From positions 5,990 to 29,989 of the forward strand of contig MNKP01000024.1 in assembly GCA_001920875.1 (NCBI GenBank): DNA of 24,000 nt, written 5' to 3'. This document shows positions 3,067-21,376 of this stretch, piece after piece. Position 1 is the first letter of the stretch, and the number at the start of each line of letters is the position of its first letter. This DNA comes from Acidobacteria bacterium 13_1_20CM_2_55_15 (GTDB taxonomy: Bacteria; Acidobacteriota; Terriglobia; 20CM-2-55-15). The notes beneath the pieces were generated by a model, which worked only from the letters and a program-made list of their open reading frames with translations, was not told the DNA's origin and did no database searches. Position numbers and translations under genes: made by a program.

Positions 3067-3218
3067 TCAACCTCAGATGTTGCAAGCCCATCGAACTCCG
3101 ACACTTTGAACCCGGTGGTATTGAAGGCAAATCCAAACAATCACAACGGATGGCCCGGGGCGTTAGGTAGAGGCCCCCACGTCTGCGTCGCAGTGCGATT
3201 AAGTTTGCCGAATCACTG

Positions 3219-3719: not shown

Positions 3720-3827
3720 TGCCGAATGAGTGCAGCGCTACTTAGCCGAGCGCGCCTATACAAACGTCGACGATGAGCGGCGGCGGCTGCATCACCACGC
3801 AGAGCATCTGTTAAGGAAATAGCATAC

Positions 3828-3887
3828 CCGAGACGACAAAACCGAATTTTGGGGGAACGAGTTCCAAAGTCTCGGATTTCTGATTTT
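3828..3887 (+). promoter_or_regulatory. structured element or weak terminator between the YkgJ-like gene and desaturase 1
   Basis: CCGAGAC (3828-3834) pairs with GTCTCGG (3869-3875). The stem encloses two small hairpins (AAAA..TTTT and GGAA-CGAG-TTCC). A T-rich tail ATTTCTGATTTT follows. Confidence 0.3.
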
Positions 3888-5542: not shown

Positions 5543-8160
5543 GCGCGACAGGAGTGTTCTCTCAACGAAGTCTTGTTACCTGCAGTCTCAATAACGCGCG
5601 CGACCTGAGTGAAGTGGGCAACAAGGCTCATAACCTCAGTCGCATGTTGAAGCTCGGACTGAACGTTCCAGCCGGATTTGTGATCACGAAAACCGCCTTT
5701 GACTTGTTTTGCGAGGCCAACGGTATCGATCTCGGGCAGGAGTCGAAGCCGGATTTGCAAGGCGCAATGATCCCGCGAGTGATTTTCGAAGAACTCTTGG
5801 AACTTCGGTACGCATGTCTGCCGTCCGGACCAGTGGTTGTTCGAAGCTCAGGCATTGGTGAGGATGGCATCAACGCTTCGTTCGCCGGTCAATTGGATTC
5901 CATCCTTCACGTCGAAACTGCCGAAGAAATAGAACGCGCCGTCTTGGCGTGTTGGTCCTCTTATTGGAACGAACGCGTGCTTTGTTACCAACGCACCAAA
6001 GGCGTCCGGTTACGAGGGATGGCCATCATCGTCCAGGCGCAAGTGACGTCTTCTCTGTCGGGCGTCCTTTTCACGGAGGCGCCTCAAGGGCGCGGGCAAC
6101 AAGACGAGATCTGCGTCGAGTATTGCGCTGGCTTTGGCGATGCTCTCGTGTCGGGGCTCGTGAATCCCGGCCGCTTTCGAATCTCTAAAACAGACGGCCG
6201 CTATACCATTGATGAATCCACGACAACATTGGATTCGATAGCGGTACAGTTCCCGTTCGAGGGGCAGCAAATTGCGACATTAGCGCGCGCGGCTGACATT
6301 TTGGAGGCCCACTTCGGGTGGCCCCAGGACGTCGAATGGACGATTGACGATTGCGGTGAATTGTTTCTACTACAATCCCGTCCGATCACCGCGCAGGCTT
6401 CTGTATTCCGTTCTCAAATCCTCTGGTCGAATGCCAACGTCAACGAAAACTTTCCTGCTCCCATAACGCCATTTCTTTATTCGATCGCGCGCGAAGGCTA
6501 CTACCACTACTTTCGGAATCTTGCAAAAGCCTTCGGTCTGTCCGCGAGCCGCATCCGGGCGATGGAACATTCTCTTCGGTATCTTGTCGGAGTCCATCAC
6601 GCCCGGATTTACTACAACCTGACGAGCATTCACTCGGTGCTTCGAATGGCGCCATTCGGCGAAGAGTTGGCTGAGTTTTTCAACGACTTCGTTGGCGTGG
6701 ACGCCATGGCCCCGGTCAGACCTGCGCCGAACAGATCGCGGTGGTTCCAGGCATTGGAGCTCTGCAGGATTGGGATCAAGACGACATGGCAGTACGCACT
6801 TCTGGCACGACGCGTCGAGCAATTCGAGCGCTGCGCCGACGATTGGGCACGCACGACAGTCCCGGCGGACCTTCAAAGCCAATCCTTGCTCGCACTCCGT
6901 GACGATCTGCGCCGTTTTATGGAGATCCGCTGTCATCGATGGACGAATGCTTCGCTGGCGGATGCGGCGTCGATGATTTGCTACGGGGTTTTGAAGCTGT
7001 TGTTGCGCAGTACATATCCTGATGCCGGAGAATCCGCGCTTCACAATAATTTGCTGAAAGGGCTTGGCGGCGTTGTCAGTGTGAAGCCTGCGATTGACTT
7101 GTGGGAACTGTCCCGAAAAATTCTGGCCGATCCCGAAACGGCGCGGTGGTTTAGGTATAGCGAAAGCCGCGACCTCATGCGCGCACTCCCGGCGGAACCG
7201 AAACGGCAGTGGCTGTTTGCGGAAGTGAATGACTATCTCGAACGATGGGGATTCCGGTTTTCCGGCGAACTGATGTTGACACAGCCCAGCTTTCAGGAGG
7301 ACCCAGCGCCTCTATTCGACATGTTGAAAACGTACCTAGACGCTAAAGATGCGGCACCGATCGAAGCCGTCCAGCAGCTCGAATACGAACGAATCTCCGC
7401 CACTGCAAACCTTCTCAATGACCTTCGCCGGACGAAGCGAATTCCCAGAGTACCGCGATGTCTTCAGGCGCCGCTTATGCGTCTCGCATTGAACGCAACA
7501 CGGCGGGCTATCCAACTCCGTGAGCGAGTACGGTCAAAGCAGGCGCTCCTTTATAACGGCTGCCGGCGAATTGCGCTCGCAATTGGCAAACAGCTTGTTC
7601 GTGCGGGCACGTTCGTGAATGCCGACGACATCTTTTTCCTGACGTACCAGGAGTTAGATGAATTCCTCACCGGGAACGCGATGTTTCCGGGCATCGTCGC
7701 GGAGACTGTTGCGCTTCGAAAGCGTGCGCATGAAGTGAGTAGCGATTCTTCGGCGCCGGATATCTTCACTTTATCCGAAGGCGCCTACCGGCCAACCGAA
7801 ACGCATGGCAGCGGTGACCGGCCACCTATGCCGTCGGCTATGGACATGTCGGGTATCGGTGCATGCGGTGGGCAAGTGTGTGCGCGAGCGACGGTGCTTG
7901 GAAGCGTGGCGGACGCGCACCTGCTCTCGGTTGGGGACATTCTGGTGACGCGCCAGACTGATCCCGGTTGGGCTCCGGTTTTCTCTTTGATTCGCGGATT
8001 AGTCATCGAAAGGGGCGGCATGCTTTCTCATGGGGCAATCATCGCCAGAGAGTTCGGCCTGCCCTGCGTAGTGGGTGTGAGAAATGCTACATCGGTAATT
8101 CGTCAAGGTTCCTTGCTATCGATCGATGGAGATCGAGGACATGTTCGAATCTTGGATTGA
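5539..8160 (+). CDS. PEP-utilising phosphotransferase with PpsA/rifampicin-phosphotransferase-like architecture (873 aa)
   Basis: The N-terminal PPDK_N/ATP-grasp region has the motifs EVGNKAHNLSRMLKLGLNVPAGFVIT and VVVRSSGIGEDGINASFAGQLDS. The C-terminal swivelling His domain reads TDPGWAPVFSLIRGLVIERGGMLSHGAIIAREFGLPCVVGV. The start overlaps the upstream stop as ATGA, and GAAGGAG lies 8-14 nt upstream. Confidence 0.9.
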   Translation: MSATGVFSQRSLVTCSLNNARDLSEVGNKAHNLSRMLKLGLNVPAGFVITKTAFDLFCEANGIDLGQESKPDLQGAMIPRVIFEELLELRYACLPSGPVVVRSSGIGEDGINASFAGQLDSILHVETAEEIERAVLACWSSYWNERVLCYQRTKGVRLRGMAIIVQAQVTSSLSGVLFTEAPQGRGQQDEICVEYCAGFGDALVSGLVNPGRFRISKTDGRYTIDESTTTLDSIAVQFPFEGQQIATLARAADILEAHFGWPQDVEWTIDDCGELFLLQSRPITAQASVFRSQILWSNANVNENFPAPITPFLYSIAREGYYHYFRNLAKAFGLSASRIRAMEHSLRYLVGVHHARIYYNLTSIHSVLRMAPFGEELAEFFNDFVGVDAMAPVRPAPNRSRWFQALELCRIGIKTTWQYALLARRVEQFERCADDWARTTVPADLQSQSLLALRDDLRRFMEIRCHRWTNASLADAASMICYGVLKLLLRSTYPDAGESALHNNLLKGLGGVVSVKPAIDLWELSRKILADPETARWFRYSESRDLMRALPAEPKRQWLFAEVNDYLERWGFRFSGELMLTQPSFQEDPAPLFDMLKTYLDAKDAAPIEAVQQLEYERISATANLLNDLRRTKRIPRVPRCLQAPLMRLALNATRRAIQLRERVRSKQALLYNGCRRIALAIGKQLVRAGTFVNADDIFFLTYQELDEFLTGNAMFPGIVAETVALRKRAHEVSSDSSAPDIFTLSEGAYRPTETHGSGDRPPMPSAMDMSGIGACGGQVCARATVLGSVADAHLLSVGDILVTRQTDPGWAPVFSLIRGLVIERGGMLSHGAIIAREFGLPCVVGVRNATSVIRQGSLLSIDGDRGHVRILD

Positions 8161-8788
8161 GACTTTTCGGCTTTACCGGCGCGAGCGATTCCCGCTCCGA
8201 ATATTTGCTCTTGTGGCAGTGGTCTTAACCCTTGCAGCTTTCGTGGAAGGCATACCGCATGACTGGTTCGAGGTCCTTCTCTCATGGATGGCGAGCGTAC
8301 TCCTGCTGCTCCAGTTCCGTATCTGGGATGATCTCGGCGACCGGAATCACGACGCCGCTCATCATCCTGACCGTGTCCTTTCGCGTTGCCATCGCGTTTC
8401 TGCATTCTACCTACTTCTTGCCTTCATTGGTTTGTCGAATTGGATCGTTTTGCTACTGCTCGGTCACTCGACGATTCCTTTTCTTCTGGTCTGCGCCGCC
8501 GCATCCTTTTGGTATACGCACGTCGACGGGGCGTTGCGCCGCGGCATTGCGGGACGGCATGTGTTGCTGTTGAAGTATCCGGTATTCGTCTGGCTGATCG
8601 CTCCGTCTCACCCGCCTGAATTGATTTCATCGATGGCTATCGTTTATCTCAGCGGCGCAATTTATGAACTACTCCATGATCGTGAGATTCGCTCGCGTCC
8701 TCAGGCGAGGCTTCTCGTTGCAATTGAGGTCTGTGCGCTCGGCGGCATCGCAGCCGTAGTGCTACGGGTCTTGGGAGAATCACTATGA
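8126..8788 (+). CDS. polytopic membrane protein with a UbiA-type Asp-rich motif (short UbiA-like prenyl/alkyl-transferase candidate)
   Basis: About six hydrophobic helices. FRIWDDLGDRNHD fits the first UbiA-family motif (N/D)DxxDxxxD. I could not identify a clear second DxxxD motif. At 220 aa it is shorter than typical UbiA enzymes. ATG 8141 is an alternative start. Confidence 0.6.
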   Translation: MEIEDMFESWIETFRLYRRERFPLRIFALVAVVLTLAAFVEGIPHDWFEVLLSWMASVLLLLQFRIWDDLGDRNHDAAHHPDRVLSRCHRVSAFYLLLAFIGLSNWIVLLLLGHSTIPFLLVCAAASFWYTHVDGALRRGIAGRHVLLLKYPVFVWLIAPSHPPELISSMAIVYLSGAIYELLHDREIRSRPQARLLVAIEVCALGGIAAVVLRVLGESL

Positions 8789-9753
8789 GTACGGCAACCG
8801 CATTTAAGCCGCTCTTCGAGAATTTTGTTTTTGAGACCGTCTCGTGCTACTCCTGCGGTAGCGCGTCCAGCAAGGAGTTCATCGTTGCTCAGGATGATCT
8901 GACGGGCAAACCGGGAAGCTTCAGGTTCGTTACTTGCCAGGATTGCGGGCTGACGTACCAAAATCCTCGAATCCGAATCGATCGAATCAAATCCTATTAC
9001 GACGACGAGTACATCGCGCACCGCAAGAAGACCGACTGGGGGCGTCTCACCTGGTTTTACAACTGGGTGATGGATAGGCATGACATCGATAAAGATCGAA
9101 TCATCCGCAGGTATGTTGAGCTGGGTCCGCAAAGCGAGATTCTCGATGTGGGCTGCGCCGTAGGCACTTTCCTCCAGAAGATGCGGACGCTCTACGATGC
9201 ACGTGTTTCAGGAGTCGACTTCAAAGACCTTTCGCACAGCTCCACGCTGGACGGAGTCGAGTTTCACTGCGGGCTTTTTTATAACCAGCGTCTCGCGAGC
9301 GGCCGCTTCGATCTTGTAACGATGTGGCACTTCCTCGAACATGATTATGATCCTTTGCGAACGCTCTTGATGGCGAAGAGAGTGTTGAAGCCGGAAGGGC
9401 GCCTCGTGATTGAAGTGCCTCGGCTGGATAGCGTCACTTTCCGTTTATATCGTGAGCGTTGGCCTGGCTTGCAGGCTCCGCAGCACACGGTTCTATTTGA
9501 GAGAAGGACACTACTAAATCTCATCGAAAAATGCGGTCTGGAAGTCGTGGACTATCTCCCTTACGGCGCTTTCCCGCCTTACTTCTACATCTTCGCCGGC
9601 GCAGCATTCAAGATTCTCAAAGGTCGTGGTCTCAATCTTTCGAAGGCCATCGTTCCTTATTTTCTGGGGCAGATTCTCCTGCTGCCCCTGTTGATGGCGG
9701 AGCGCCAACTCAATCTCGCGATGCAAACCGTCATTTGCAGGAGGAAACCATGA
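8785..9753 (+). CDS. class I SAM-dependent methyltransferase with an N-terminal Cys4 zinc ribbon
   Basis: CYSCGS...CQDCGLTYQNP forms the zinc ribbon. ILDVGCAVGTFL is SAM motif I, and LKPEGRLVIEVP is the post-II/III region. The start overlaps the upstream stop as ATGA. Confidence 0.9.
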   Translation: MSTATAFKPLFENFVFETVSCYSCGSASSKEFIVAQDDLTGKPGSFRFVTCQDCGLTYQNPRIRIDRIKSYYDDEYIAHRKKTDWGRLTWFYNWVMDRHDIDKDRIIRRYVELGPQSEILDVGCAVGTFLQKMRTLYDARVSGVDFKDLSHSSTLDGVEFHCGLFYNQRLASGRFDLVTMWHFLEHDYDPLRTLLMAKRVLKPEGRLVIEVPRLDSVTFRLYRERWPGLQAPQHTVLFERRTLLNLIEKCGLEVVDYLPYGAFPPYFYIFAGAAFKILKGRGLNLSKAIVPYFLGQILLLPLLMAERQLNLAMQTVICRRKP

Positions 9754-10571
9754 GCTCTGTAATCAGAGAAGCGAAGGCAAAAACTGGAATGCTGAACAAT
9801 CCTGAAGTACAAGAATCGCTCAGTATCCCTGATTTTCCTCAGCAGCGATGGCGTCCGTATTTTCTATTGGTCGCAAGCAGCGTGCTGTTGACGTTCTGCG
9901 CCGCCGTCATGTTCCTCGTCGCCTTATTTACAGGATTCCAATTGCGGCGGTTCTACTCCGAAGTGTTGGGTCGGCGGCTGGGAAAGGCCGTCCTGACTTT
10001 GTGCGGCGTCCGGATCGAGCAGCATGGACCGGCCCCCCTGCCGAATATTCAAACGATCTTTATCGCGAACCACACGTCTACGCTGGATGTGTTTATCCTT
10101 CTCGCCCTGGGATTGCCTCGAACACGATTCTTCCTCAAACGTAAATACAGGCTGATTCCTCCACTCGCGGTCATCAGTTATCTCGTCGGTGTTTTCTTTA
10201 CGCCGCCCCAAACCAACCGTGCGAAGCGCGTGCGCTGTTTCCAACATGCCGAAGACGTGTTGCGGCGAACCGGCGATTCTGTTTTCTTGAGTCCAGAAGG
10301 AACGCGAATCACCTCGGGACAGATTGGGCCATTCAACAAAGGCGCTTTTCATCTGGCGACGGCCCTGCGGGCGCCCATCGTTCCTATCTTTATCGTCATT
10401 CCAAGGAACATCAACCCCGGCCGGGGATTTGCGGCGCTTCCCGGCGTAGTTCATGTTTACTTTCAATCTCCGATTCCGACGACAGACTGGAAGCTTAGTG
10501 ATCTGGATAGAAACAAGACTGCCGTTCGAGACTACTTTGCTGGATTGAACGTGACCTTAGGACTGAGATGA
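9750..10571 (+). CDS. lysophospholipid / 1-acyl-sn-glycerol-3-phosphate acyltransferase (PlsC/AGPAT family)
   Basis: NHTSTLD is the HX4D motif, FLSPEGTR is the PEGTR motif, and APIVPIFI is also present. There is an N-terminal TM helix. I used internal ATG 9750 of track ORF 9531..10571; it has GGAGGA 4 nt upstream and overlaps the methyltransferase stop as ATGA. Confidence 0.9.
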   Translation: MSSVIREAKAKTGMLNNPEVQESLSIPDFPQQRWRPYFLLVASSVLLTFCAAVMFLVALFTGFQLRRFYSEVLGRRLGKAVLTLCGVRIEQHGPAPLPNIQTIFIANHTSTLDVFILLALGLPRTRFFLKRKYRLIPPLAVISYLVGVFFTPPQTNRAKRVRCFQHAEDVLRRTGDSVFLSPEGTRITSGQIGPFNKGAFHLATALRAPIVPIFIVIPRNINPGRGFAALPGVVHVYFQSPIPTTDWKLSDLDRNKTAVRDYFAGLNVTLGLR

Positions 10572-12328
10572 TTCCAAACCAGTTTCGAACCTTGGCCGAT
10601 GTGCTTCGGTATCGCACTGAAACGCAGGCATTCGAGGCCGCCTATACATTTTTGAATGACGGTGAAGCCGAAGGCCGCACCATCACGTATCGTGATCTCG
10701 ATTTTCAAAGCCGAGCGCTTGCAGTAATGTTGCGTGACTGGCGCATACAGCGTCCGTTGCTGGTCTATCCTCCTGGGCTCGATTTCATCGTGTCTTTCTT
10801 CGCCTGCATTTATGCCCGCATCACACCTGTGCCTGCAGGTCTCGCTCATATCATGCGCCTCGGCCGCTCCTTGACACGCCTTGCCGCCGTGGCGCGTGAT
10901 GCAGACGCGGATGCCGTTCTCAGTGTTACGCGAGTCATTGACCGAGCGTTCACTGATCCGGATTTCATGAATCGATCGCAGGAGCTCGGTCGAATGCGAT
11001 GGCTCGCGACCGATCGCTGTGATGAAGCTCTGGGCGCATGTTATCAAGATGCTTTGCTGCCATCCGACATGCCGGCGTTCATACAGTACACGTCCGGTTC
11101 GACATCGATTCCAAAAGGAGTCGTCGTCACTCATCGAAACCTGCTTCACAATTTGAGTTACTGCAACGAGGTGGAGGAGAACGGCCGCGATACGATCTCC
11201 GTCTCATGGCTGCCTCACAGCCACGATATGGGCTTGATCGAAGCTATCCTGCTCCCGACTTTCGCGGGCTATCGCGCCTACCTCATGTCTCCCGCATCAT
11301 TTCTCCGCCGGCCGGCGCGGTGGCTCGAGGCTATTACACGCTTTCGCGCGACCAACAGCGGTGGGCCCAATTTCGCTTTCGATCTGTGCGTTGAAAAGAT
11401 TTCCGCCGAAGAACAGGAGAATCTAGATCTCACCTCCTGGCGCGTCGCTTACAACGGCTCGGAGACGATTCGGAGTGAGACTTTATTGCGGTTTCGCCAA
11501 AGATTCGAACGCTCCGGATTCCGCTGGAACGCATTTTATCCGGTTTATGGGCTGGCTGAATCGACACTCCTGGTTTCGAGCGGTCATGCGGCAGATGTGC
11601 CAGTGGTTCGGGAACTCGATGCAGAGGCGTTAGGTCGAGGCATCGTGGCAGCTCCGCAACACCGCACTGCCAAGACTATCAGCGTCGTCGCGAGCGGCAG
11701 GACACAGTCCCATACTCGAATCGTCATCGCGGATCCGGAAACACTTGTCAAGTGTGGCGCAAATGAAGTCGGCGAAATCTGGATCGCGGGACCCAGCGTT
11801 GCCAATGGTTACTGGCAGAAGCCGGCCGAAACCGAGGCGGCGTTTCATGCCTATTTCGAGGACAGCCAGGATGGGCCATTCTTACGAACGGGCGATCTCG
11901 GCTTCTTGTCGGATGGACAGCTCTTTGTGACCGGGCGGATCAAAGACGTTATAAATATTCGCGGATTCAAACATTATCCGCAAGACATTGAGCACACTGT
12001 TAGTCAGAGTCCTGCCGCCATCTTAATGAGTGGCTGTGCCGCATTCGCCGTCGATGGAGATGGAACCGAGCAACTCGCCGTTGTCATCGAGGTCCTTCCG
12101 AAGTTGTCTCAGGATTTCGACGATTGGAGCGATCAGGCCATAACCGCTATCCAGAGTGCGGTAACGGAACGGCACGGAATAAGGATCCAGTCGCTGGCGC
12201 TTGCGCCTTACGGATCGATTCCGAAAACGACGAGCGGAAAACTTCAACGGCAACTGTGCCGCAGGTGGTTCATCGACGGTAGCCTGCAGACGGTTCGCAT
12301 CTGGAGTCACGACGGAGAACGAGCATGA
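10568..12328 (+). CDS. fatty acyl-AMP ligase (FAAL-type adenylating enzyme)
   Basis: FIQYTSGSTSIPKGVVVTHRNLLHN is the AMP-binding core. VSWLPHSHDMGLI is a motif typical of FAALs such as FadD32. GDLGF...GRIKD is also present. The start overlaps the upstream stop as ATGA. Confidence 0.9.
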   Translation: MIPNQFRTLADVLRYRTETQAFEAAYTFLNDGEAEGRTITYRDLDFQSRALAVMLRDWRIQRPLLVYPPGLDFIVSFFACIYARITPVPAGLAHIMRLGRSLTRLAAVARDADADAVLSVTRVIDRAFTDPDFMNRSQELGRMRWLATDRCDEALGACYQDALLPSDMPAFIQYTSGSTSIPKGVVVTHRNLLHNLSYCNEVEENGRDTISVSWLPHSHDMGLIEAILLPTFAGYRAYLMSPASFLRRPARWLEAITRFRATNSGGPNFAFDLCVEKISAEEQENLDLTSWRVAYNGSETIRSETLLRFRQRFERSGFRWNAFYPVYGLAESTLLVSSGHAADVPVVRELDAEALGRGIVAAPQHRTAKTISVVASGRTQSHTRIVIADPETLVKCGANEVGEIWIAGPSVANGYWQKPAETEAAFHAYFEDSQDGPFLRTGDLGFLSDGQLFVTGRIKDVINIRGFKHYPQDIEHTVSQSPAAILMSGCAAFAVDGDGTEQLAVVIEVLPKLSQDFDDWSDQAITAIQSAVTERHGIRIQSLALAPYGSIPKTTSGKLQRQLCRRWFIDGSLQTVRIWSHDGERA

Positions 12329-14997
12329 GTTCCGCTATAACCGTTGCATCAGGCCAGATAGAAGAATTCCTTCAGCATCGTGTCGCGGAGATCGCTGGAG
12401 TGACGCCATCCAGCGTCAGCTTGAGCACGGCCTTATCGCGCCTCGGAGTGGATTCGCTCGGTATGCTTCACCTGATCGAGGGCATCGAAAGCGAATTGGG
12501 AACAGAAATTCCAAACGCGATCTGCTTGGACGGTCTCACCATTCAGTCGCTTGCAGAAGTTTTGGCTGCTTGTGTACCGGGCGCACGGCGCGCAACCGTT
12601 AATCTGGCCCAAGAGATGGCGGCCGACAGCAAACTTCCGGAGGACATTCGCCCTGCGCCAGGCCCAGCCGTGGCGCTGCCTCGATCGATTCTGCTAACCG
12701 GTGCGACGGGCTTTCTTGGGGCCTACTTGCTACGTTCGCTTCTGCGAAACACGAAAGCGCAGGTTGTTTGCCTGGTCAGGCCAGACAAAGACGACGGTCA
12801 AACCAGGGTTCGGCGGAATCTCGAGCGCTACGGAATCTGGGATGACGGATTCGACCATCGCATTGCGATACTCGAGGCAGACATTACGCAGCCGCATTTG
12901 GGCCTGCCACCTTCTTCATTTGACGCCCTGGCAATCACCATCGACGTCGTGTTTCACGCAGCGGCGGCGGTGAATTGGGTGCACTCTTATACGCGGCTGC
13001 GGCACACGAACGTGCTGGCCCTTCGCGAGTTGTTGGGCTTGGCCTGCCGCCACAGGTCAAAACCCTTTCATCTCATTTCGACTCTGGCTGTGTGCTACTC
13101 GATGACAGGTTCGCGAGAGGTTTCAGAGACTGACGATGTGTTTGCAGATGTGGCTGGAATCCATCTGGGATATGCGCAAAGCAAATGCGTTGCGGAGTCC
13201 CTCGTGAAAACCGCAGCGCAGCGCGGCTTGCCGGTATCGATCGTTCGGCCCGCTCTTATCTCAGGCAACAGCGTTACGGGCATCTCCAATACCGAGGACT
13301 TCGTTTCGAAGTTTATCAGGGCGTGCGTACAAATGGGCGCGGCCCCGGATCTTGACTGGCTCCTGGACTTTTTGCCCGTCGACTTTGCGGCGGAAGCGAT
13401 TACGCGCCTTGTATTGAACGGAAATTTGGAGCCATTTCGAGTTTTCCATTTAGCGAATCCAAAGCTCAGACATTGGCGCGAGTTGATATTATGGATGAAC
13501 CTGTTTGGATATCGCGTCGAACTGCTTCACTACCAGGATTGGCTGCATCGGCTCAATGCCGATGTACGTAATGATAGGGAACATCCGTTACGAGACCTTC
13601 TCCCATTTTTTCTACATCGTCCTGCAGGACAGAAGGGACTTTATCTGCCTCAGTTGTACGAGGAATCCCGGCGGCGCAAAGCACGGTTCGATGCCACGCG
13701 GGAGCTGCTGGAGCGCGAAGATCTGACGTGTCCGCAATTGTCCACTCGTTTACTGGATCGTTACTTCGAATCCTACATTGATCGTAAGTTTCTGCCGCCA
13801 GTCGAAAGGTCCCATCGAACGGACCCTCCTGCCGCTGATGAACATCTGCAATTCGACGCGTGCTTCTTTAACTCTGTGATTGGAAACCACGAGGTGACCC
13901 GCGCGCGACCGCTTGAATTCTCCGGTGGTCATAGCGTGATCGGCGAACTGACATCGTGGAAGTACGGCCACTCGATCGGGCTGCACGGCTATCGTCTCGA
14001 ATTTGGGGACGGGCAACGTGAGCGTGACGTGATCGTGAAGGTGAAAGCGCGCGATAAGGAAGTAACGGCCGTCGGGCAAACCTTAGCAGCATTGTGCAGT
14101 CCCGCTCTCGGCTGCGCCTACGAGCGTTTCTCCGATTGTCTAGGCTTGACCGGGTGTGATACTCGCGAACTCTCTGTCTACCAGCAGGATGATGCTCGTT
14201 TCCGTCGATTCACTCCGGGGTTTTACGGTGGACGATCGGATCATGCGCGAACGGTTCTGGTCCTGGAAAAGCTGTCGCGGTTGGAAATGATGGACTCGGT
14301 CGAGTCTGTACACACTTGGCCTGCCAAATACATCGAAGCGGCCATTCAAGGAATCGCGCGGCTCCACGCCATTTGGTACGGAGTGCAACTGGGGCGTGCC
14401 GTGAACCAATCGTGGTCTAATCAGGTTCTCCATCGAAAACAGTTTGCGGAGGCCAGGGATCTTTGGGTTGCCCTGGCGGACCACGCCTGCCCGATTTTTT
14501 CGCCTTGGATAGGTCCCGAATGCGGCGCGATACAATCCGTTCTCATCGAGCGCCTGGATGAGTTCTGGCGGCTTCATGAAGGCATGTCGCATACCTTGAT
14601 CCATAATGATTTCAATCCTCGAAACCTCGGATTCCGACGCTCAGGCAGCGAATTGAGCCTTTGCCTCTACGATTGGGAACTCGCGACGGTCGATCTTCCG
14701 CAACATGACCTTGCCGAGCTCCTGTGCTTCGTACTTGGAGCAGACGTGCAACGGTCCGATCTCCTTCGTTACATCGAAATGCACCGGACGGCATTACAAG
14801 ACGCGACGGCACAACAGATTGATGACACTTCTTGGGTGCTCGGCTTTTGCCTATCGCTGTATGACCTGATGATCAATCGGCTGCCAGCTTATGCAATGAT
14901 TCACCGTTTTAATGAGCAGCGTTTTCTCGAACGTGTAATTCGTACATGGAAGGGAATATTCGATGTCGTATCCAGCACGATATATTCGCCTTTGTAA
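12325..14997 (+). CDS. tri-domain fusion: acyl carrier protein + thioester reductase (NAD-binding SDR) + APH/choline-kinase-like phosphotransferase
   Basis: The ACP domain has LGVDSLGM, with the phosphopantetheine Ser at residue 44. The reductase domain has LLTGATGFLGAYLL from residue 123 and YAQSK (YxxxK). The C-terminal kinase fold has LIHNDFNPRN (HxDxxxxN, His at nt 14602) and LYDWE. The start overlaps the FAAL stop as ATGA. Confidence 0.9.
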   Translation: MSSAITVASGQIEEFLQHRVAEIAGVTPSSVSLSTALSRLGVDSLGMLHLIEGIESELGTEIPNAICLDGLTIQSLAEVLAACVPGARRATVNLAQEMAADSKLPEDIRPAPGPAVALPRSILLTGATGFLGAYLLRSLLRNTKAQVVCLVRPDKDDGQTRVRRNLERYGIWDDGFDHRIAILEADITQPHLGLPPSSFDALAITIDVVFHAAAAVNWVHSYTRLRHTNVLALRELLGLACRHRSKPFHLISTLAVCYSMTGSREVSETDDVFADVAGIHLGYAQSKCVAESLVKTAAQRGLPVSIVRPALISGNSVTGISNTEDFVSKFIRACVQMGAAPDLDWLLDFLPVDFAAEAITRLVLNGNLEPFRVFHLANPKLRHWRELILWMNLFGYRVELLHYQDWLHRLNADVRNDREHPLRDLLPFFLHRPAGQKGLYLPQLYEESRRRKARFDATRELLEREDLTCPQLSTRLLDRYFESYIDRKFLPPVERSHRTDPPAADEHLQFDACFFNSVIGNHEVTRARPLEFSGGHSVIGELTSWKYGHSIGLHGYRLEFGDGQRERDVIVKVKARDKEVTAVGQTLAALCSPALGCAYERFSDCLGLTGCDTRELSVYQQDDARFRRFTPGFYGGRSDHARTVLVLEKLSRLEMMDSVESVHTWPAKYIEAAIQGIARLHAIWYGVQLGRAVNQSWSNQVLHRKQFAEARDLWVALADHACPIFSPWIGPECGAIQSVLIERLDEFWRLHEGMSHTLIHNDFNPRNLGFRRSGSELSLCLYDWELATVDLPQHDLAELLCFVLGADVQRSDLLRYIEMHRTALQDATAQQIDDTSWVLGFCLSLYDLMINRLPAYAMIHRFNEQRFLERVIRTWKGIFDVVSSTIYSPL

Positions 14998-15580
14998 TTT
15001 GCTGACGTACATCTCGCTATTGTGCAGCCTGCTGGCTGTCTTCGCCGCGCGGGAATACCGAAGCTGGGAGGCCGCCGGTTTATTGCTCGCGGTTTCCGCG
15101 CTCGCCGATACCTTCGATGGAAAATTCGCTCTGCTCTTCCAACGGACCGAGAACGAGAGCGAATTCGGCGCACAACTCGACAGTCTCGTTGACGCCGTTT
15201 CGTTTGGAATCGTGCCTGTCGTCTGCTTGCAGTCGCTCGTCCAATTCGATTCGGCCTCGGCTCGATTCGAGTTGCTGGTGGCTGCGTTTGTGTACGTTCT
15301 GTGCGCGGTGACCCGGCTTGGCTATTACAATCTACACCATCACGCGCAGTCCGGATTCATCGGACTGCCGACAACTCTAGCTGCTCTTTTGTGGTCGACA
15401 CTGTTCCTCACACATCCATCCGCGATACCCGTTGCTCTGATCTCTGTCCTCGTCGGCGGGGCGATGGTTTCGCCGTTGACCGTTTCCAGGCCGCGAGGTA
15501 TTGCAATGGGAGCGTACATGCTCTGGTTTCTGGTTGTATTTATTTCGTACACATACCGGTTCGTCGCCGGAATCTACTGA
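14963..15580 (+). CDS. CDP-alcohol phosphatidyltransferase family protein (small, PssA/archaetidylserine-synthase-like, divergent motif)
   Basis: DTFDGKFAL-x11-GAQLDSLVDAV resembles DGxxARx8GxxxDxxxD, but the Arg is replaced by Leu and the spacer is 11 residues. There are about six hydrophobic helices. It overlaps the previous gene by 35 nt. Confidence 0.8.
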   Translation: MSYPARYIRLCNLLTYISLLCSLLAVFAAREYRSWEAAGLLLAVSALADTFDGKFALLFQRTENESEFGAQLDSLVDAVSFGIVPVVCLQSLVQFDSASARFELLVAAFVYVLCAVTRLGYYNLHHHAQSGFIGLPTTLAALLWSTLFLTHPSAIPVALISVLVGGAMVSPLTVSRPRGIAMGAYMLWFLVVFISYTYRFVAGIY

Positions 15581-15583
15581 CCG

Positions 15584-16651
15584 ATGCGCGATAGCAGTGT
15601 TCGGGAGCTTCGAGCAGATCTGCAAAAACGAGGCTGTTACGAAAAGCACACGGCGCGGATCCTCTTCGACCTGAGCATCAGTGCTCTAATGGCGGCTGGT
15701 GGACTTGTGGTGTATCTCGCGGCTTCGGGATCAGTCGCGCGCACATGTGGTCTGATCGTGTGGACTGCAGGCAGCATCGGAATCGGCACTAACACACACA
15801 ATTCCTCTCATTATGCGACCGCCAAGAAACGCTGGGTAAACGAATTGCTGACCTATATCGGCTATCCTGTCTATTTTGGCCTGTCGGCGACCTACTGGTG
15901 GCACAAACATGTGCTTGTCCACCATAGCGCCCCGAATGTAATAGGCGTTGATGGCGACGCGGATCTGTCTCCATGGTTTGCAACTACAACGGATGAAGTT
16001 CGGCTATCGTCGGGAATGCGGAGGTTTTTCTATGTGCACCTCCAGCGATTCGTTTTTCCTGTCGCTATTTCCCTGACATTATTCAGCCAACAAATTGCCG
16101 GATACATCCATCTGGCTCGATCGCTTCGCAGCAAAAAGCGTCAGCTAGCGCACGGCGTCGACCTTGCCGCCCTGTTAGCGCACGTCGTCCTCACCCTGGG
16201 CATTCCGATGTTCTTCTTTAGTCCTTCGAACGTCATCGCATTCTACGTCCTACGCAATGCTCTCATGTCGTACGCGATGTTCTCGGTATTTGCTCCTGCG
16301 CACTTTCTTTCGGAAGCGTCACGGCTTGACAAGAACGTCGCACAGTTCGACTATCTGCTCACGCTGACTGCGACGACATTGAATTTCCGAATGGGACGCC
16401 TGGGAAGACTGTTGTGTTCCGGACTTGAATACCAGATCGAGCATCATCTTCTTCCCGATATTAGCTATGTCCACTATCCGGCTATCAGTAATTTAGTGGA
16501 GCAGTTCTGTAAGAGTCACGCGTTCCCCTACCGGCGATATCGATGGGAGTTCGCGTTGTGGCGTTCGCTATCCGCGGTTAGCAACCCATGCGAGATTGTG
16601 CGTGACGCGAGTGTCCTTCATTGGCCGGTAGGTGCCAAAGGCGCTGGCTAG
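15584..16651 (+). CDS. membrane fatty-acid desaturase family protein with a Q-type third His box (front-end-desaturase-like)
   Basis: His boxes are HNSSH, HKHVLVHH and QIEHH(LLP). A QxxHH third box is the hallmark of front-end and sphingolipid-type desaturases. There is no cytochrome b5 domain. It starts 3 nt after the upstream stop. Confidence 0.9.
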   Translation: MRDSSVRELRADLQKRGCYEKHTARILFDLSISALMAAGGLVVYLAASGSVARTCGLIVWTAGSIGIGTNTHNSSHYATAKKRWVNELLTYIGYPVYFGLSATYWWHKHVLVHHSAPNVIGVDGDADLSPWFATTTDEVRLSSGMRRFFYVHLQRFVFPVAISLTLFSQQIAGYIHLARSLRSKKRQLAHGVDLAALLAHVVLTLGIPMFFFSPSNVIAFYVLRNALMSYAMFSVFAPAHFLSEASRLDKNVAQFDYLLTLTATTLNFRMGRLGRLLCSGLEYQIEHHLLPDISYVHYPAISNLVEQFCKSHAFPYRRYRWEFALWRSLSAVSNPCEIVRDASVLHWPVGAKGAG

Positions 16652-17136
16652 TCGGGGAGAATCTTCTGGGAGCAGTTAATACCCGACATGACGTCTGTAC
16701 CAAAAAGTTCGACATAATTGACCTTTGGCAAGAGAAATGACGAGTCGATGTTGGCGAAGATCTTCTGCAGATACGCGCGGTGTCCATCAATTGTAGTCTC
16801 GGCGCGGACCTGACCGTCCTCTTCATATACTTCGATTTCGACTCGCTTCTGAGAGACCACTGTCAGCACATAGTGACTGGGCGATTTGGTCCGCAGGTGT
16901 ATGCCATAAGCTCTTGTTCTTTCGAGAAAATTTAAGGCCTGGCGCTTGCCATTAGCTGAGCCCATCGTCCAGTACACGATAACCGGCTCGCGCGGATCCA
17001 AGTGGCCGCTGCCATCGAGATGCGCGTCGTAGTGCACCACGTTACCGTTAGTTGTCCGCTCGATAATGAACAACTGTTTGTCTGGGGCTCGCATCAGAAT
17101 TGGCGATGCTAGAAGCAGGATTATTTTGAATCTCAT
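16648..17136 (-). CDS. secreted beta-rich hypothetical protein, DUF4833-like (family recalled from memory, unverified)
   Basis: The signal peptide is MRFKIILLLASPILMRAP. LFIIERTTNGNVVHYDAHL...VIVYWTM...ALNFLERTRAYG resembles DUF4833 proteins as I remember them. Its stop shares the tetranucleotide CTAG (16648-16651) with the convergent desaturase stop. Confidence 0.75.
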   Translation of the reverse strand: MRFKIILLLASPILMRAPDKQLFIIERTTNGNVVHYDAHLDGSGHLDPREPVIVYWTMGSANGKRQALNFLERTRAYGIHLRTKSPSHYVLTVVSQKRVEIEVYEEDGQVRAETTIDGHRAYLQKIFANIDSSFLLPKVNYVELFGTDVMSGINCSQKILPD

Positions 17137-17228
17137 TGAATGCCATTTTAGCTAACTGCTTACAGTCGAACCAAAAAAGAGAAATCCGGATTTTATCCAA
17201 CGCAACCATAACGCCGACGGTACTTCGC

Positions 17229-17444
17229 TTACTTTTGGCCGTAGTACCTGCCGAAGGTTTCGTAATAGAGACGGTTCAGCCATCGCAGGTATTTCTCCCA
17301 GTTTTGGCCGTTGCTCCGGAAAGTCAACCGGATCATTTCGTTCAGATCCATATCGAAGAAATCGGCGGGAAGGCGATCCCGTACGCCGGGAATCGGCCAG
17401 TATTCCTGAAAGAACGGGATCAATTGAAGGCGGCGCAGCATCAT
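17229..17444 (-). CDS. small hypothetical protein (72 aa from MMLRRL...; the track ORF extends to 17540)
   Basis: The sequence LIPFFQEYWPIPGVRDRLPADFFDMDLNEMIRLTFRSNGQNWEKYLRWLNRLYYETFGRYYGQK looks natural. The longer 103-aa version overlaps the upstream gene by 38 nt. It could instead be a frameshifted C-terminus of that gene. Confidence 0.5.
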   Translation of the reverse strand: MMLRRLQLIPFFQEYWPIPGVRDRLPADFFDMDLNEMIRLTFRSNGQNWEKYLRWLNRLYYETFGRYYGQK

Positions 17445-17502
17445 CCACTGGGAATGCGGCTGTCGATGTCGAACAGTGCAACGCGACGCATACTGGCGGA
17501 CG

Positions 17503-18372
17503 TCACGAAACTTGGGCGAGACGTTGCATGTATTGGACATGAAGCCGCGGATGAAGCGCCTTCAATTGTTTTCGCGCATCGATGAGCTCGCCGTCGGAGC
17601 AAAACGGCTTGTTTTCGCTGACGATCCAATAGAGACAAAAGCGGCGCGACGATGGCGACTCGATAAAGGCCGCGCCGAATTTCCGCTTGAATCCGTCGAA
17701 TTCGCCGCGCGATGAGAACCGCGCGGGCGGCAATTCCCCGGCGGCACATAATTCAGGGAAAGCCCATTCGGCTTCATCTGCGGAGCGCAATCGGGCGAGG
17801 AAGCGGGGATCTTCGATCAAAGCCCACCTGTCCTCCGGCAATCCCAACAGGAACGACCAGTGGTAATTGGAATGCGCCACAGGTCCATGTCCGAGCCGGA
17901 AATCGCAGTTGCCGAGCTGAAGCCGAACTTTCCAGCCATCGCCAATCTGCCGGATCTCGTTTTCATAACGCCGTCGCGCATTCCGCGGCTGCTCAGCCAA
18001 GAGATAAAAGTCTCCGAGCGAGCGGCCCGCGGCCGTGCGCAGTTCCTCAAACAACTTCCGATTCGAGGCCAGAAGCCGCGAAAAGAAGTTGCGCCTTAGC
18101 GATGCTGTCCAGGATCTGGAAACATCGAGCGTGTTCAGCCGCGCTTCCAGTTTTTGCCAGGCTCCGTAGCCGGAGTCTAGATCCATCGGTTTAGCCGCCA
18201 GCTTGGATCCCGCACGCACCAATTCCGGTTCCCAGATGAGTTTGGCTTCCGGCCAGAAGCGATGAAATTCTTCCAGCCGTCGCAACGCGCTGTGAAAATC
18301 CAGACGCGCGATCGCATCTTGCAGTTCGGTTCTCGCCATGACTTCCGGTTCGAAAAGCAAACCCTGCTGCAT
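17503..18372 (-). CDS. hypothetical protein (289 aa)
   Basis: Long ORF. Its ATG directly abuts the upstream TAG, and GGAGG lies 4 nt upstream, which suggests translational coupling. I recognise no motif. Confidence 0.8.
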   Translation of the reverse strand: MQQGLLFEPEVMARTELQDAIARLDFHSALRRLEEFHRFWPEAKLIWEPELVRAGSKLAAKPMDLDSGYGAWQKLEARLNTLDVSRSWTASLRRNFFSRLLASNRKLFEELRTAAGRSLGDFYLLAEQPRNARRRYENEIRQIGDGWKVRLQLGNCDFRLGHGPVAHSNYHWSFLLGLPEDRWALIEDPRFLARLRSADEAEWAFPELCAAGELPPARFSSRGEFDGFKRKFGAAFIESPSSRRFCLYWIVSENKPFCSDGELIDARKQLKALHPRLHVQYMQRLAQVS

Positions 18373-19254
18373 CTAGCCTCCGCAGCATTTCTTGAATTTT
18401 TTGCCGCTGCCGCAAGGACACGGATCGTTGCGGCCGGCCTGGGCCGCCGCAACAGCCTGAAGTATTACGCCTGCGGGCGCCGCTGGTGCGGATTGGAGCT
18501 TCTTGCGAGGCGCAGGCTCAGTCTTGTCGAAGCACGCCCACCAACTCATCGCCGCTTCAACATCCGAGATCATGCGGTATCGGTCTTTCAGGAATCGCAG
18601 GCTGGCTTCTTTCCCGCGGGCCAGAGCGTCTTGGATATCGTCCCAACCGATGTATCCCGGCTCGATATAGCCTTCTTCGTAGGCGCGGCGGATCTTGTCC
18701 ATGACCTCCTCCGGCCGGAGGTCCGCGCACGCGGAGGCAAGTCCGTTCCAGATCATGGGCGGCTCCGGCTCGAAGACGTCGAACAGCCGGTCAAAATATG
18801 CCATCACCTCCTCACGGTTGCGCAAACCGCATGCAACGAGGGTCAAAAGACCGTCCAAAGCCGCCGCTCTCACGTACTCATCGGCCTTCGCATTCTCTGC
18901 CAAGGCGGTCATACCGCCAATGTCGCCGCCGGAAACAGATGCCAGAATCGACCCCAAACCTTCAGTGACGACATCGCCTGCCAGATCGTGTATGGATTCG
19001 GCGGGCGCCGAAAATATTTTCACCAGTAAGGGATAAGCGCGCGTCTCGCGGAATTGCGCCAGCAGGTACATTGCGAAGATGTGGACCATCCGGTCCTCGC
19101 TCGCGAATGGCCGGGGATCCCGTGCAGCGTCTTCCAAGACTCCGAGCAGCGCTGGAGTTAGGTCTTCGCGCCGGGCGACGGCCTCCCGGACTGCCGTTCG
19201 GGGGAAGCGGCCGATGGAGTGGTCGAATTGCGAAAGAATGTCATCGATTTGCAT
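18373..19254 (-). CDS. DUF1186-like protein with a C-terminal SEC-C metal-binding motif
   Basis: The C-terminus GRNDPCPCGSGKKFKKCCGG is a canonical SEC-C motif. The body resembles DUF1186 proteins, a recognition from memory. Confidence 0.85.
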   Translation of the reverse strand: MQIDDILSQFDHSIGRFPRTAVREAVARREDLTPALLGVLEDAARDPRPFASEDRMVHIFAMYLLAQFRETRAYPLLVKIFSAPAESIHDLAGDVVTEGLGSILASVSGGDIGGMTALAENAKADEYVRAAALDGLLTLVACGLRNREEVMAYFDRLFDVFEPEPPMIWNGLASACADLRPEEVMDKIRRAYEEGYIEPGYIGWDDIQDALARGKEASLRFLKDRYRMISDVEAAMSWWACFDKTEPAPRKKLQSAPAAPAGVILQAVAAAQAGRNDPCPCGSGKKFKKCCGG

Positions 19255-19508
19255 AAGCGTTCTGAAAAAGTTCGCGAATGACCTGATACGGCTTGATGGG
19301 AGTATCCGATAAATAAGCGGAGGTTGTGGAATCTTGATACGAGTTCTTCTCGATCCTTTACGCAGTAAACGATTCGCGTGGGGAGGAACAATTCGTCCGT
19401 CAGCGTCATCATCAGGCGACGGCCATCACTGCGTTGGAAAAGACCGTTGGATGCCCCGCCAACGCCGCTGCTGCCGATGCGTGCAAGAAATTTTCCCAGC
19501 TCGATCAT
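19158..19508 (-). CDS. hypothetical protein (116 aa; 3' end uncertain)
   Basis: The first ~60 codons have GC-rich third positions. The last ~32 codons overlap the start of the SEC-C gene (19158-19254) and look non-coding-like, so the real end may differ. Confidence 0.45.
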   Translation of the reverse strand: MIELGKFLARIGSSGVGGASNGLFQRSDGRRLMMTLTDELFLPTRIVYCVKDREELVSRFHNLRLFIGYSHQAVSGHSRTFSERLCKSMTFFRNSTTPSAASPERQSGRPSPGAKT

Positions 19509-19861
19509 GGTTCACATCCTACAAACACAGATCCCCATCCGAGGTCCAGGTGAATGACCGGATTCCCGGGCGACCCGTTTAATCAGACAACGTTGGCTCT
19601 GGAATGCTAGGCGCTCGTTCCCGGCGCGGTTTTCCAAGATCTGAAAGAGACCGAATTGACAGGAGTTGCCGATTCTCTGCATTCTATTGCGATGATCGAA
19701 CCCGAACGAAAAGATACAGAACGTTCCAAAGAACCGGAACCGACATGGGAAAAGGGTGCCGCAGAATATCGTGATCAAGTTCGACCGACAAGGCAAGTGA
19801 CGGTGAGGCCTCCCGAGAAACTGCGCTAACAAGTCTTTCTGCCACGAGAGGTCCGGTTTCT

Positions 19862-20326
19862 GTGGGTGTAAGTCCGGACGAAGATATGGGTATCGGCATA
19901 CGGCAGATCTTAGTCAACGATAAGGATGAAGTTCTCCTGCTGACCAACCGATTCTTTAAGAAGCTCTGGGACAAATCACCGGAAGGCCTCCTTCCACAAT
20001 TCGCTGGGCGCCGCGTTCGATGGGCTGAAGCGGCAGTGGAAATCCAGAATTACCGGCCAATCGCTATTCTACGGGTCGTCTATTCATACATGTCCTTCGA
20101 TGCTAATGGCCGGCTCGACACGGACAGACTGATGCAGGATGCTGCGCTGAAGATAGAGGCCGGAATCGGGGATATTTTTGTAACGAAGTCAGACAAAGTA
20201 ATCAATGCCTCAGCCCGATTTGCGGCTCGCCGCCGGGATCATGAAGCCGTCTGGAGACCGAGCGCGAAGGTGGAAAAAGCCATCTATGACGCCGCACTCG
20301 GCGCAAACAGATCCGGCCGCTTCTGA
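19862..20326 (+). CDS. hypothetical protein (154 aa; alternative start ATG 19886)
   Basis: The ORF is uninterrupted and its sequence looks natural (…RVRWAEAAVEIQNYRPIAILRVVYSYMSFDANGRLDTDRLMQDAALKIEAG…). I recognise no motif. Confidence 0.7.
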   Translation: MGVSPDEDMGIGIRQILVNDKDEVLLLTNRFFKKLWDKSPEGLLPQFAGRRVRWAEAAVEIQNYRPIAILRVVYSYMSFDANGRLDTDRLMQDAALKIEAGIGDIFVTKSDKVINASARFAARRRDHEAVWRPSAKVEKAIYDAALGANRSGRF

Positions 20327-21126: not shown

Positions 21127-21376
21127 CCGCTTTTTTCCTTCCGCTGCTCCTTTCAGCGTGGCTCCACCACTCTTCATTTGAGTGAACTGGGGTGTCCGGC
21201 TGGAGAAGGTGCCGGGACCTTATGCGCCGCAACGGTGTACTTCGCGGACGCCCGGACCACTACCGCGAAACCGCATAGGGGACCTTAAGGTCGAGCCTTC
21301 GGGTGCCAAAATCAGCCTGCGGCTTACCTTCTGCTGTACAGATTTGTTTGAGATCCGCGGAATCGTTTTCCGTGCC

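Follow-up and report, generated by a model that had tools for sequence, protein, structure and literature searches.

A carrier protein-thioester reductase-kinase fusion at the center of a widespread operon points to an undescribed bacterial lipid pathway

The window analyzed here is a 24,000-nucleotide (nt) stretch of DNA from Acidobacteria bacterium 13_1_20CM_2_55_15 (contig MNKP01000024.1, positions 5,990 to 29,989). On its + strand, at 12325-14997, lies an open reading frame (ORF) of 890 amino acids (aa) with an ATG start, which encodes an acyl carrier protein (ACP), a thioester reductase and an aminoglycoside phosphotransferase (APH)-like kinase within a single polypeptide. A preliminary description of this DNA had proposed the same three-part architecture, and it is borne out by the Pfam and NCBIfam domain annotation of the ORF, by 737 homologues and by an AlphaFold2 model. 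The start codon of the fusion gene overlaps the stop codon of the upstream fatty acyl-AMP ligase (FAAL) gene (ATGA at 12325-12328), and a Shine-Dalgarno-like sequence, GGAGAA, is positioned 7 nt upstream of it. The gene is contained in a run of + strand genes from 3886 to 16651 and is the center of a nine-gene lipid operon that is highly syntenic, widespread and undescribed. The full-length AlphaFold2 model, calculated with 41 homologues, has a pLDDT of 87.9 and a pTM of 0.85, with low confidence limited to the linker between ACP and reductase and to residues 499-506. The E-values of the domains, together with more than 700 homologues of the same architecture, rule out a chance match.

The ACP domain (residues 16-79, nt 12370-12561) matches the PP-binding family PF00550 with an E-value of 1.8e-9 and a score of 38.2 bits, compared to a cut-off of 20.8. 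Its phosphopantetheine attachment residue is S44 in the motif LGVDSL (residues 40-45), encoded at nt 12454-12456. Across an alignment of 41 homologues of the fusion with 40-72% identity, to which all statements on invariant residues of the fusion refer, G41, D43 and S44 do not vary. The reductase domain (residues 122-489, nt 12688-13791) scores 319 bits against TIGR01746 in NCBIfam (cut-off 213) and matches Pfam NAD_binding_4 at residues 124-359 with an E-value of 8e-65; both its Rossmann motif TGATGFLG (residues 125-132) and its catalytic pair Y283/K287 in YAQSK (nt 13171-13185) are invariant. When its profile was compared to solved structures, the closest was MxaA (4u7w, E 7e-115), followed by a polyketide synthase (PKS) R domain (8v1x), carboxylic acid reductases (about 1e-58) and the R domain of a Mtb nonribosomal peptide synthetase (NRPS) (4dqv, 1.5e-49). 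The carboxylic acid reductase model NF041592 gives 129.8 bits, far below its cut-off of 1300. MxaA-R is the terminal reductase of myxalamid, studied for primary-alcohol formation, and Mtb-R reduces its substrate to the alcohol in two steps, with four electrons transferred (PMC8024701). Because these closest relatives belong to alcohol-forming systems, a primary alcohol may reasonably be expected as the product of the reductase in the fusion.

The C-terminal domain (residues 505-890, nt 13837-14994) has the APH/choline-kinase fold, according to its Pfam APH and EcKL matches, AlphaFold2, Foldseek and its invariant residues. The preliminary description had given the kinase region about 370 residues; the region is present, and its size here is 386 aa. 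The APH family PF01636 matches residues 667-817 with 35.9 bits (cut-off 23.2), while EcKL (PF02958) matches residues 616-828 marginally, with 26.6 bits (cut-off 22); since the second match overlaps the first, it indicates the clan and not a specific family. The choline/ethanolamine kinase family PF01633 is not among the Pfam matches at E ≤ 0.01, and the resemblance to these kinases is confined to the fold (2ckq, 2qg7).

The expected kinase fold is found in the structural calculations. In particular, the AlphaFold2 model of the isolated residues 505-890 has a pLDDT of 90.3 and a pTM of 0.91, and a Foldseek comparison of the domain to the PDB returned kinases only, with a probability of 1.00. 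The best matches are N-acetylhexosamine 1-kinase (NahK), APH(3')-Ia, the putative APH 3csv, TvaE, aminopropanol kinase, choline kinase and LxmK; the entry 6ef6 is among those matched. These matches have TM-scores of about 0.5 and identities of 12-17%, which places the kinase domain far from every solved member; by sequence, the only PDB entry matched at the catalytic motif is ACAD11 (8v3v), weakly (E 1.3). The motif LIHNDFNPRN, previously placed at nt 14602 and ahead of LYDWE, has its first codon at nt 14596 and its His codon at 14602; LCLYDWELA comes after it. The domain thus contains a β3 lysine (K572, nt 14038-14040) with its paired glutamate (E615), a catalytic loop H760-x-D762-x4-N767 (nt 14602-14625) and a Mg-binding D783-W784-E785 (nt 14671-14679). 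The preliminary description had made conservation in orthologues a touchstone for these catalytic residues, and K572, E615, H760, D762, N767 and D783 are all invariant, the last together with the W and E that complete its motif. The kinase active site is intact and conserved, and the invariance of its catalytic residues argues that the domain is not a pseudokinase.

A search of 5.8 billion proteins with the 890-aa protein yielded 737 matches at E ≤ 1e-5. Among the 120 that were listed, nearly all are 850-930 aa long with the same three domains, four are 1481-1486 aa long with a FAAL fused in front, and every one is named in its source merely as a 'thioester reductase domain-containing protein'. 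Moreover, a scan of one genome per species found a relative of the fusion in at least 501 species-level genomes. The best 80 of these loci were compared; all come from metagenome-assembled genomes (MAGs), and the highest identity to the window protein is 47%. They are distributed across Planctomycetota, Acidobacteriota (Vicinamibacterales and Pyrinomonadaceae), Gemmatimonadota and Myxococcota, and further across Burkholderiales, other Proteobacteria, Akkermansiaceae and Nitrospinaceae. The only cultured carrier found is Hyalangium rubrum, which has a FAAL-ACP-reductase-kinase protein of 1475 aa; a literature search found no lipid data for it.

The fusion of reductase and kinase is obligatory and essentially never split. 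The preliminary description had called for a search for the same fusion, or for split versions, in other genomes, and the fusion proves to be widespread: the two halves are in one ORF in 80 of 82 loci, or in 80 of the 81 that can be evaluated, as one locus runs off its contig. The sole locus with reductase and kinase in separate ORFs is L065 (9875-12388), from a long-read MAG. A 360-nt gap and a missing kinase N-lobe indicate that it is probably a frameshift or a pseudogene. Further, there is a subfamily of about 790-830 aa that lacks the ACP (loci L030, L044, L048, L051, L076 and L078-L082), in Nitrospinaceae, Burkholderiales, Gammaproteobacteria and some Acidobacteriota. Its operons are without a FAAL, and its proteins presumably draw acyl-CoA or acyl-ACP directly, and yet the reductase-kinase fusion is kept. 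This persistence after the loss of ACP and FAAL ties the kinase to the reductase product, and not to a tethered substrate or to the carrier domain.

Our reading, to which we assign a probability of roughly 0.55, is that the fused kinase phosphorylates the fatty alcohol derived from the reductase, yielding a fatty alkyl phosphate. The preliminary description had suggested that the reductase product is passed to the fused ATP-dependent kinase, plausibly giving an alkyl phosphate, and, as far as sequence can speak to it, the suggestion is supported by the obligatory fusion, the conserved kinase residues and the alcohol-forming relatives of the reductase. The FAAL encoded upstream probably loads the ACP of the fusion; it would adenylate a fatty acid and transfer it to S44, as the architecture and the FAAL fusions elsewhere suggest. 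By analogy with MxaA and the Mtb NRPS R domain, the reductase would carry out an NAD(P)H-dependent four-electron reduction, via the aldehyde, to a primary fatty alcohol, and the APH-fold domain would then use ATP to convert this putative substrate into the fatty alkyl phosphate. The operon probably does not stop at the alkyl phosphate but uses it as an intermediate.

The genes that accompany the fusion are conserved with it. An Acidobacteriota chromosome has the operon's gene order at 46% identity, the 80 loci show it as well, and it is kept across Planctomycetota, Acidobacteriota, Gemmatimonadota, Myxococcota and Proteobacteria; the frequency of each partner was counted in the 50 loci with enough flanking sequence. 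All partners in the window are on the + strand. The run begins with a membrane fatty-acid desaturase/hydroxylase family protein (Des1; 3886-4947; PF00487, E 7e-23; 47 of 50 loci), whose His boxes are HECGH, HAKHH and HELHH. It is followed by a CarS-like membrane cytidylyltransferase of the CDP-archaeol synthase family (4850-5542; PF01864, E 1.4e-10; NF003114, E 7e-14), which is found in all 50 loci.

The third gene (5539-8160; 49 of 50 loci) encodes an 873-aa rifampin-phosphotransferase-like 'X, water dikinase' with PPDK_N and PEP-utilizers domains. It is composed of an ATP-grasp part, a substrate domain and a swivel part with its His in GGMLSHGA (residues 826-833), and its orthologues contain an Rph_4th domain. 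Its closest PDB entries are 5fbs and 5hv1 (E 2e-62), the Listeria rifampin phosphotransferase (RPH) structures, whose deposited name is 'PEP synthase'. The 'X, water dikinases' are ATP-dependent and act via a phospho-His intermediate, and the characterized Rph-type enzymes phosphorylate the hydroxyls of hydrophobic small molecules.

The fourth gene (8126-8788; 44 of 50 loci) encodes a divergent, UbiA-like membrane protein of 220 aa, a putative transferase of the UbiA superfamily, which matches PF01040 with 27.7 bits, under the cut-off of 34.2. Its first Asp-rich motif is DDLGDRNHD (residues 68-76) and its second is ELLHD (residues 181-185); across the family, R65, D68, D69, D76, R83, K150, Y151, E181 and D185 are invariant, giving the motifs R..DDLxDxxxDR..HPxR and ExxxD. 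In the UbiA superfamily, such acidic motifs bind Mg-diphosphate. Eight of 28 orthologues match UbiA, and HHalign relates the window protein with 95% probability to the UbiA protein of locus L083, which is itself above the cut-off (56.5 bits). In NCBIfam, the L083 clade is nearest to the uncharacterized 'PRK13592 prenyltransferase', and not specifically to DGGGPS.

The remaining partners lie on either side of the fusion. A class I SAM-dependent methyltransferase of 322 aa (8785-9753; Methyltransf_23, E 1.2e-21) and a PlsC/AGPAT-family acyltransferase (9531-10571; PF01553, E 1e-19; HX4D motif at HTSTLD) are each present in 49 of 50 loci. The true start of the acyltransferase is probably near 9750, because its longest ORF overlaps the methyltransferase gene by 222 nt and its orthologues are about 260 aa long. 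The 586-aa FAAL-like protein (10568-12328; 43 of 50 loci) combines an AMP-binding domain (E 9e-56) with a DIP2-like C-terminal domain; its best specific NCBIfam model is PRK05850 (fatty-acid--AMP ligase), with an E-value of 2.2e-123 and a score below the curated cut-off, and a generic NRPS/PKS model scores higher. Downstream of the fusion is a CDP-alcohol phosphatidyltransferase resembling PssA and archaetidylserine synthase (14963-15580; PF01066, E 1.6e-14; NF038087, E 4e-24; TIGR00473, E 1.5e-23), which is present in 32 of 50 loci, either in this position or, in Planctomycetota, at the start of the operon. In the window protein, the Arg of its DGxxAR motif is replaced by Leu (DTFDGKFAL); the AR is kept in 43 of 46 orthologues, and the change may mean a weakened or altered enzyme in this organism. 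The catalytic motifs of the other partners are all intact in the window. Gene fusions in related loci join the FAAL to the ACP-reductase-kinase protein (6), the UbiA-like protein to the methyltransferase (3) and the acyltransferase to the FAAL (2). The flanks of the 80 loci were also searched for genes supplying a backbone or head group; no further gene recurs in more than 7 loci, and those that do recur are unrelated to lipids. As nothing else recurs in the flanks, the operon is a self-contained module.

Relatives of the kinase are also found outside the fusion, and these stand-alone forms provide the comparison that tells us most. An exhaustive HMMER search of representative clusters, with the kinase domain alone as query, gave 770 clusters at E ≤ 1e-3, of which 227 reach E ≤ 1e-30; the length classes are about 800, 900 and 1450 aa, and a number of clusters lie at about 360-420 aa. 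Some homologues with a length of about 400 aa start with Met and are genuinely separate genes; three stand-alone kinases (P0131, P0158 and P0231) are on short contigs and were left out of the comparison of gene contexts. In L083, which is from an NCBI genome, a stand-alone kinase is encoded near an Rph-like dikinase and a UbiA protein, without a reductase or CDP enzymes. This cluster (6803-20164) consists of a 4HBT thioesterase, an AMP-binding enzyme, a DUF3419/BtaA-like protein, the kinase, a 355-aa protein, the Rph-like dikinase, the UbiA protein, an MMPL transporter and a FAD_binding_4 protein, and probably represents a further lipid pathway that has yet to be described. The P0216 kinase belongs to an operon in which it is co-transcribed with an Rph-like dikinase, a ketosynthase and a protein resembling a dehydratase; the 222-aa neighbor of this kinase was considered as UbiA-like and rejected, being PKS dehydratase-like. 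The P0237 operon (genes 2857-10397 of a JGI 3300071358 contig) has the order CdsA-family cytidylyltransferase, kinase, UbiA, CDP-alcohol phosphatidyltransferase and pyridoxal phosphate (PLP) enzyme, next to an Rph-like dikinase gene on the opposite strand; reductase, FAAL and ACP are absent. The stand-alone kinase P0254, on an 8.6-kb contig, has unrelated neighbors only. Overall, these contexts define a recurring core of kinase, Rph-like dikinase, UbiA-like transferase, CDP-lipid synthase and CDP-alcohol transferase, and the window-type operon is this core with a fatty-alcohol-generating front end (FAAL, ACP and thioester reductase) and an AGPAT.

The most economical continuation from the alkyl phosphate, using every conserved gene, is a second phosphorylation followed by UbiA-like ether formation. 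The Rph-like dikinase would add the second phosphate, creating an alkyl diphosphate; transfer of phosphate onto a phosphate acceptor is the activity of the PPDK branch of the dikinase family. Like DGGGPS in archaea, the UbiA-like enzyme would then move the alkyl group to a hydroxyl of glycerol phosphate to form an ether bond. The AGPAT would acylate the free position, the CarS-like enzyme would make a CDP-activated lipid and the CDP-alcohol phosphatidyltransferase would add serine or a similar head group, with the desaturase and methyltransferase modifying the chain or the head group. As a whole, this ether-lipid route, in which archaeal logic is applied to fatty-acid-derived chains through two phosphorylations and a UbiA-type ether formation, is a tentative proposal and on balance doubtful.

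Several considerations weigh against the kinase step or against its continuation. First, sequence cannot prove that the reduction proceeds beyond the aldehyde, we know of no APH-family member that phosphorylates fatty alcohols, and the stand-alone kinase homologues without a reductase imply that the substrate of the family need not derive from one. Second, the order of the two phosphorylations is assumed, and the Rph-like dikinase could itself be the alcohol kinase, leaving another substrate to the APH domain. Third, the score of the window UbiA-like protein against PF01040 is below the cut-off of 34.2 bits, the profile of its family has no match among PDB structures other than a spurious methyltransferase, and UbiA enzymes are not known to use a saturated, non-allylic alkyl diphosphate as their donor. 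Finally, the carriers found for the operon include no cultured organism whose ether lipids are known.

Direct use of the alkyl phosphate would share the kinase step and differ in the downstream route. The CarS-like enzyme would convert the alkyl phosphate into a CDP-alkanol, from which the CDP-alcohol phosphatidyltransferase would make a glycerol-free alkyl-phospho-head-group lipid; in a variant, the AGPAT might acylate a chain hydroxyl introduced by the desaturase/hydroxylase, giving a diol-type two-tail lipid like those of Thermomicrobium/Thermus. Such a scheme would suit the joint presence of kinase, cytidylyltransferase and CDP-alcohol transferase in both the window operon and the minimal P0237 operon, and the Pfam FA_desaturase family does include hydroxylases. 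However, it leaves without a role the Rph-like dikinase and the UbiA-like protein, which are conserved in nearly all loci and which accompany the kinase even in L083, where the CDP enzymes are absent; moreover, no diol-lipid producer was found among the carriers. We consider direct use unlikely. Long-chain 1,2-diol lipids of the Thermomicrobium/Thermus type were also considered as the product in their own right and were rejected, as no carrier or literature link was found.

Similarly improbable is a kinase acting on a later lipid intermediate or on a head-group alcohol, such as 1-O-alkylglycerol, a lysolipid hydroxyl, ethanolamine, choline or serine, while the Rph-like dikinase acts on the fatty alcohol and the fusion merely secures stoichiometry or complex formation. 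The taste of Rph-type dikinases for hydrophobic hydroxyls, with 5fbs and 5hv1 as the nearest structures, is consistent with this division of labor, as are the HNDxxxxN loop of the choline/ethanolamine-kinase type, the presence of both kinases among the fold matches and the stand-alone homologues without a reductase. It is harder to reconcile with a fusion that is obligatory and outlasts the loss of ACP and FAAL, and with the fixed arrangement of reductase and kinase that is confidently predicted in the full-length model (pTM 0.85). Further, Pfam returns no Choline_kinase match at the threshold given above, and the operon has no soluble cytidylyltransferase for a phospho-head-group.

A third possibility is that the kinase phosphorylates a hydroxyl on the acyl chain of a thioester, as in ACAD10/ACAD11 and LvaA with 4-hydroxyacyl-CoA, with the phosphate becoming the leaving group for an elimination or substitution. 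The sole PDB sequence match at the catalytic motif, to ACAD11, would fit this activity, but it does not extend beyond the generic APH motif; TvaE and LxmK, two kinases whose added phosphate is eliminated, are among the fold matches, and a desaturase/hydroxylase-family gene is conserved in the operon, but there is no lyase or ACAD-like partner in it. The domain order also puts the kinase after the reductase, and the fusion persists without an ACP in cis, so that action on the thioester-bound chain is very improbable. The weakest alternative, a C-terminal domain that serves as a pseudokinase scaffold or regulator or that converts a carboxylate into an acyl phosphate in the FAAL-less variants, could appeal to the lack of any known experimental activity and to the need of those variants for another acyl donor, but it is highly improbable because the ATP-binding and phosphotransfer residues are all invariant over 40-72% identity, carboxylate kinases have other folds, and an acyl phosphate would be redundant for most family members, which have FAAL and ACP.

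With phosphorylation of the reductase-derived alcohol as the preferred reading, the fusion can be compared to described systems. The preliminary description did not know the reaction as a described one, and the full-text literature searches likewise found no description of the fusion or the operon; nor did they find anything relevant on a fatty alcohol kinase, a fatty alcohol phosphate, the domain combination or a UbiA-Rph/fatty alcohol link. Among described systems, the ElbD/elb ether-lipid operon of myxobacteria comes closest. ElbD of Myxococcus xanthus is one polypeptide with the order FAR-like, ACS, ACP and AGPAT, and without a kinase (PMC9131029; PMC9426513); its operon also encodes a HAD-like ElbB and the epimerase-like ElbA and ElbE, and its ether-forming step is still unknown (PMC9131029). 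Both systems use the same first-step set of acyl activation, ACP, FAR-type or thioester reductase and AGPAT, and serve a specialized membrane lipid (PMC9131029; PMC9426513). In contrast, the window has the AGPAT, FAAL and ACP-reductase-kinase as separate genes in another order and with an extra kinase, and the elb operon is without the Rph-like, UbiA-like, CarS-like and CDP-alcohol transferase genes. Identity with ElbD was considered and rejected on the grounds of the different domain order, the absence of a kinase from ElbD and the different operon. Recent surveys of ElbD-like clusters make no mention of an APH-type kinase.

The NRPS/PKS R domains (MxaA and the Mtb NRPS R domain) and the carboxylic acid reductases share with the fusion the ACP-R didomain, the Rossmann motif and the Tyr/Lys pair. 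Carboxylic acid reductase carries its adenylation domain in the same protein, whereas in the window adenylation is separate, being fused in 6 related loci. The product set free by known R domains is an aldehyde or an alcohol, and to our knowledge none of these domains has been described with a fused kinase. ACAD10/ACAD11 and LvaA resemble the fusion in having an APH-fold kinase fused to or paired with an acyl-processing enzyme, in addition to the weak, motif-level ACAD11 match. Their kinases phosphorylate the 4-hydroxyl of acyl-CoA for elimination, whereas the kinase here is joined to a thioester reductase and would probably act on the newly formed C1 alcohol. The 873-aa operon protein, in turn, has the RPH architecture and swivel His, but it reaches 299 of the 999 bits that the equivalog model requires, and its context is lipid biosynthesis rather than antibiotic resistance.

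Two further pathways bear on the putative downstream steps. In archaea, a diphosphate-dependent ether-forming transferase, a CDP-lipid synthase and a CDP-alcohol phosphatidyltransferase act in this order; the UbiA-like, CarS-like and PssA-like proteins of the operon belong to or resemble the DGGGPS, CarS and archaetidylserine synthase families and could follow the same logical order. The archaeal hydrocarbon is an isoprenoid diphosphate, in contrast to the fatty acid that would enter here via reduction and phosphorylation, and the operon proteins all score far below the equivalog cut-offs. No GGGPS or glycerol-1-phosphate (G1P) dehydrogenase gene was found near the operon in the flanks of the 80 loci. 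In the phytol salvage of plants and cyanobacteria, the phytol kinase VTE5 and the phytyl-phosphate kinase VTE6 act in succession ahead of UbiA-family phytyltransferases or chlorophyll synthase; here, too, a long-chain alcohol is phosphorylated twice and the diphosphate is used by a UbiA-family enzyme. The two schemes differ in that VTE5 is CTP-dependent and CdsA-like, VTE6 belongs to COG1836, the alcohol is an allylic isoprenoid and neither a carrier protein nor a reductase is involved.

Overall, the comparisons point to a widespread lipid pathway, so far undescribed, in which bacterial enzymes are combined with enzymes of archaeal type. If the kinase step is as proposed, it would be a new activity, with a carrier-protein reductase coupled to a kinase that uses ATP to phosphorylate fatty alcohols, and fatty alkyl phosphate would be a new lipid intermediate. 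If the full route also holds, it would give Acidobacteriota, Gemmatimonadota, Planctomycetota and others a way of forming ether bonds that tolerates oxygen, with the first fatty alcohol kinase and the first UbiA enzyme using an alkyl diphosphate. The formation of alkyl ether bonds in aerobic bacteria is unresolved, and even the ElbD route is without an identified ether-forming step (PMC9131029). The question matters for the 'lipid divide' that separates Bacteria from Archaea and for knowing which organisms produce the bacterial ether lipids that are used as environmental proxies. The fusion and its strictly conserved partners offer a concrete, testable candidate pathway in mostly uncultured soil, freshwater and marine lineages, and the cultured carrier H. 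rubrum makes genetic and lipidomic tests feasible.

The operon was also considered as the source of the ether lipids of cultured Acidobacteria of subdivision 4 (SD4), which is unsupported. In particular, a search with a Pyrinomonadaceae orthologue returned MAG and metagenome proteins only and no cultured SD4 acidobacterium, so that the ether lipids measured in SD4 cultures cannot be ascribed to the operon.

Outside the nine genes, scans of the window found no Rfam family, and its promoter and terminator signals are at or below chance level. The + strand run ends with a second FA_desaturase-family gene (15584-16651; PF00487, E 3e-23), whose 3′ end is overlapped by a convergent DUF4833 gene on the - strand (16648-17136); neither gene has a counterpart in the 80 related loci. 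The flanking genes at 1341-2828, 17503-18372, 18373-19254, 21182-22891 and 23266-23913 are not conserved with the operon; they comprise a 495-aa and a 289-aa ORF without a Pfam match, a protein with DUF1186 and SEC-C, an amidase and a PAP2 lipid phosphatase.

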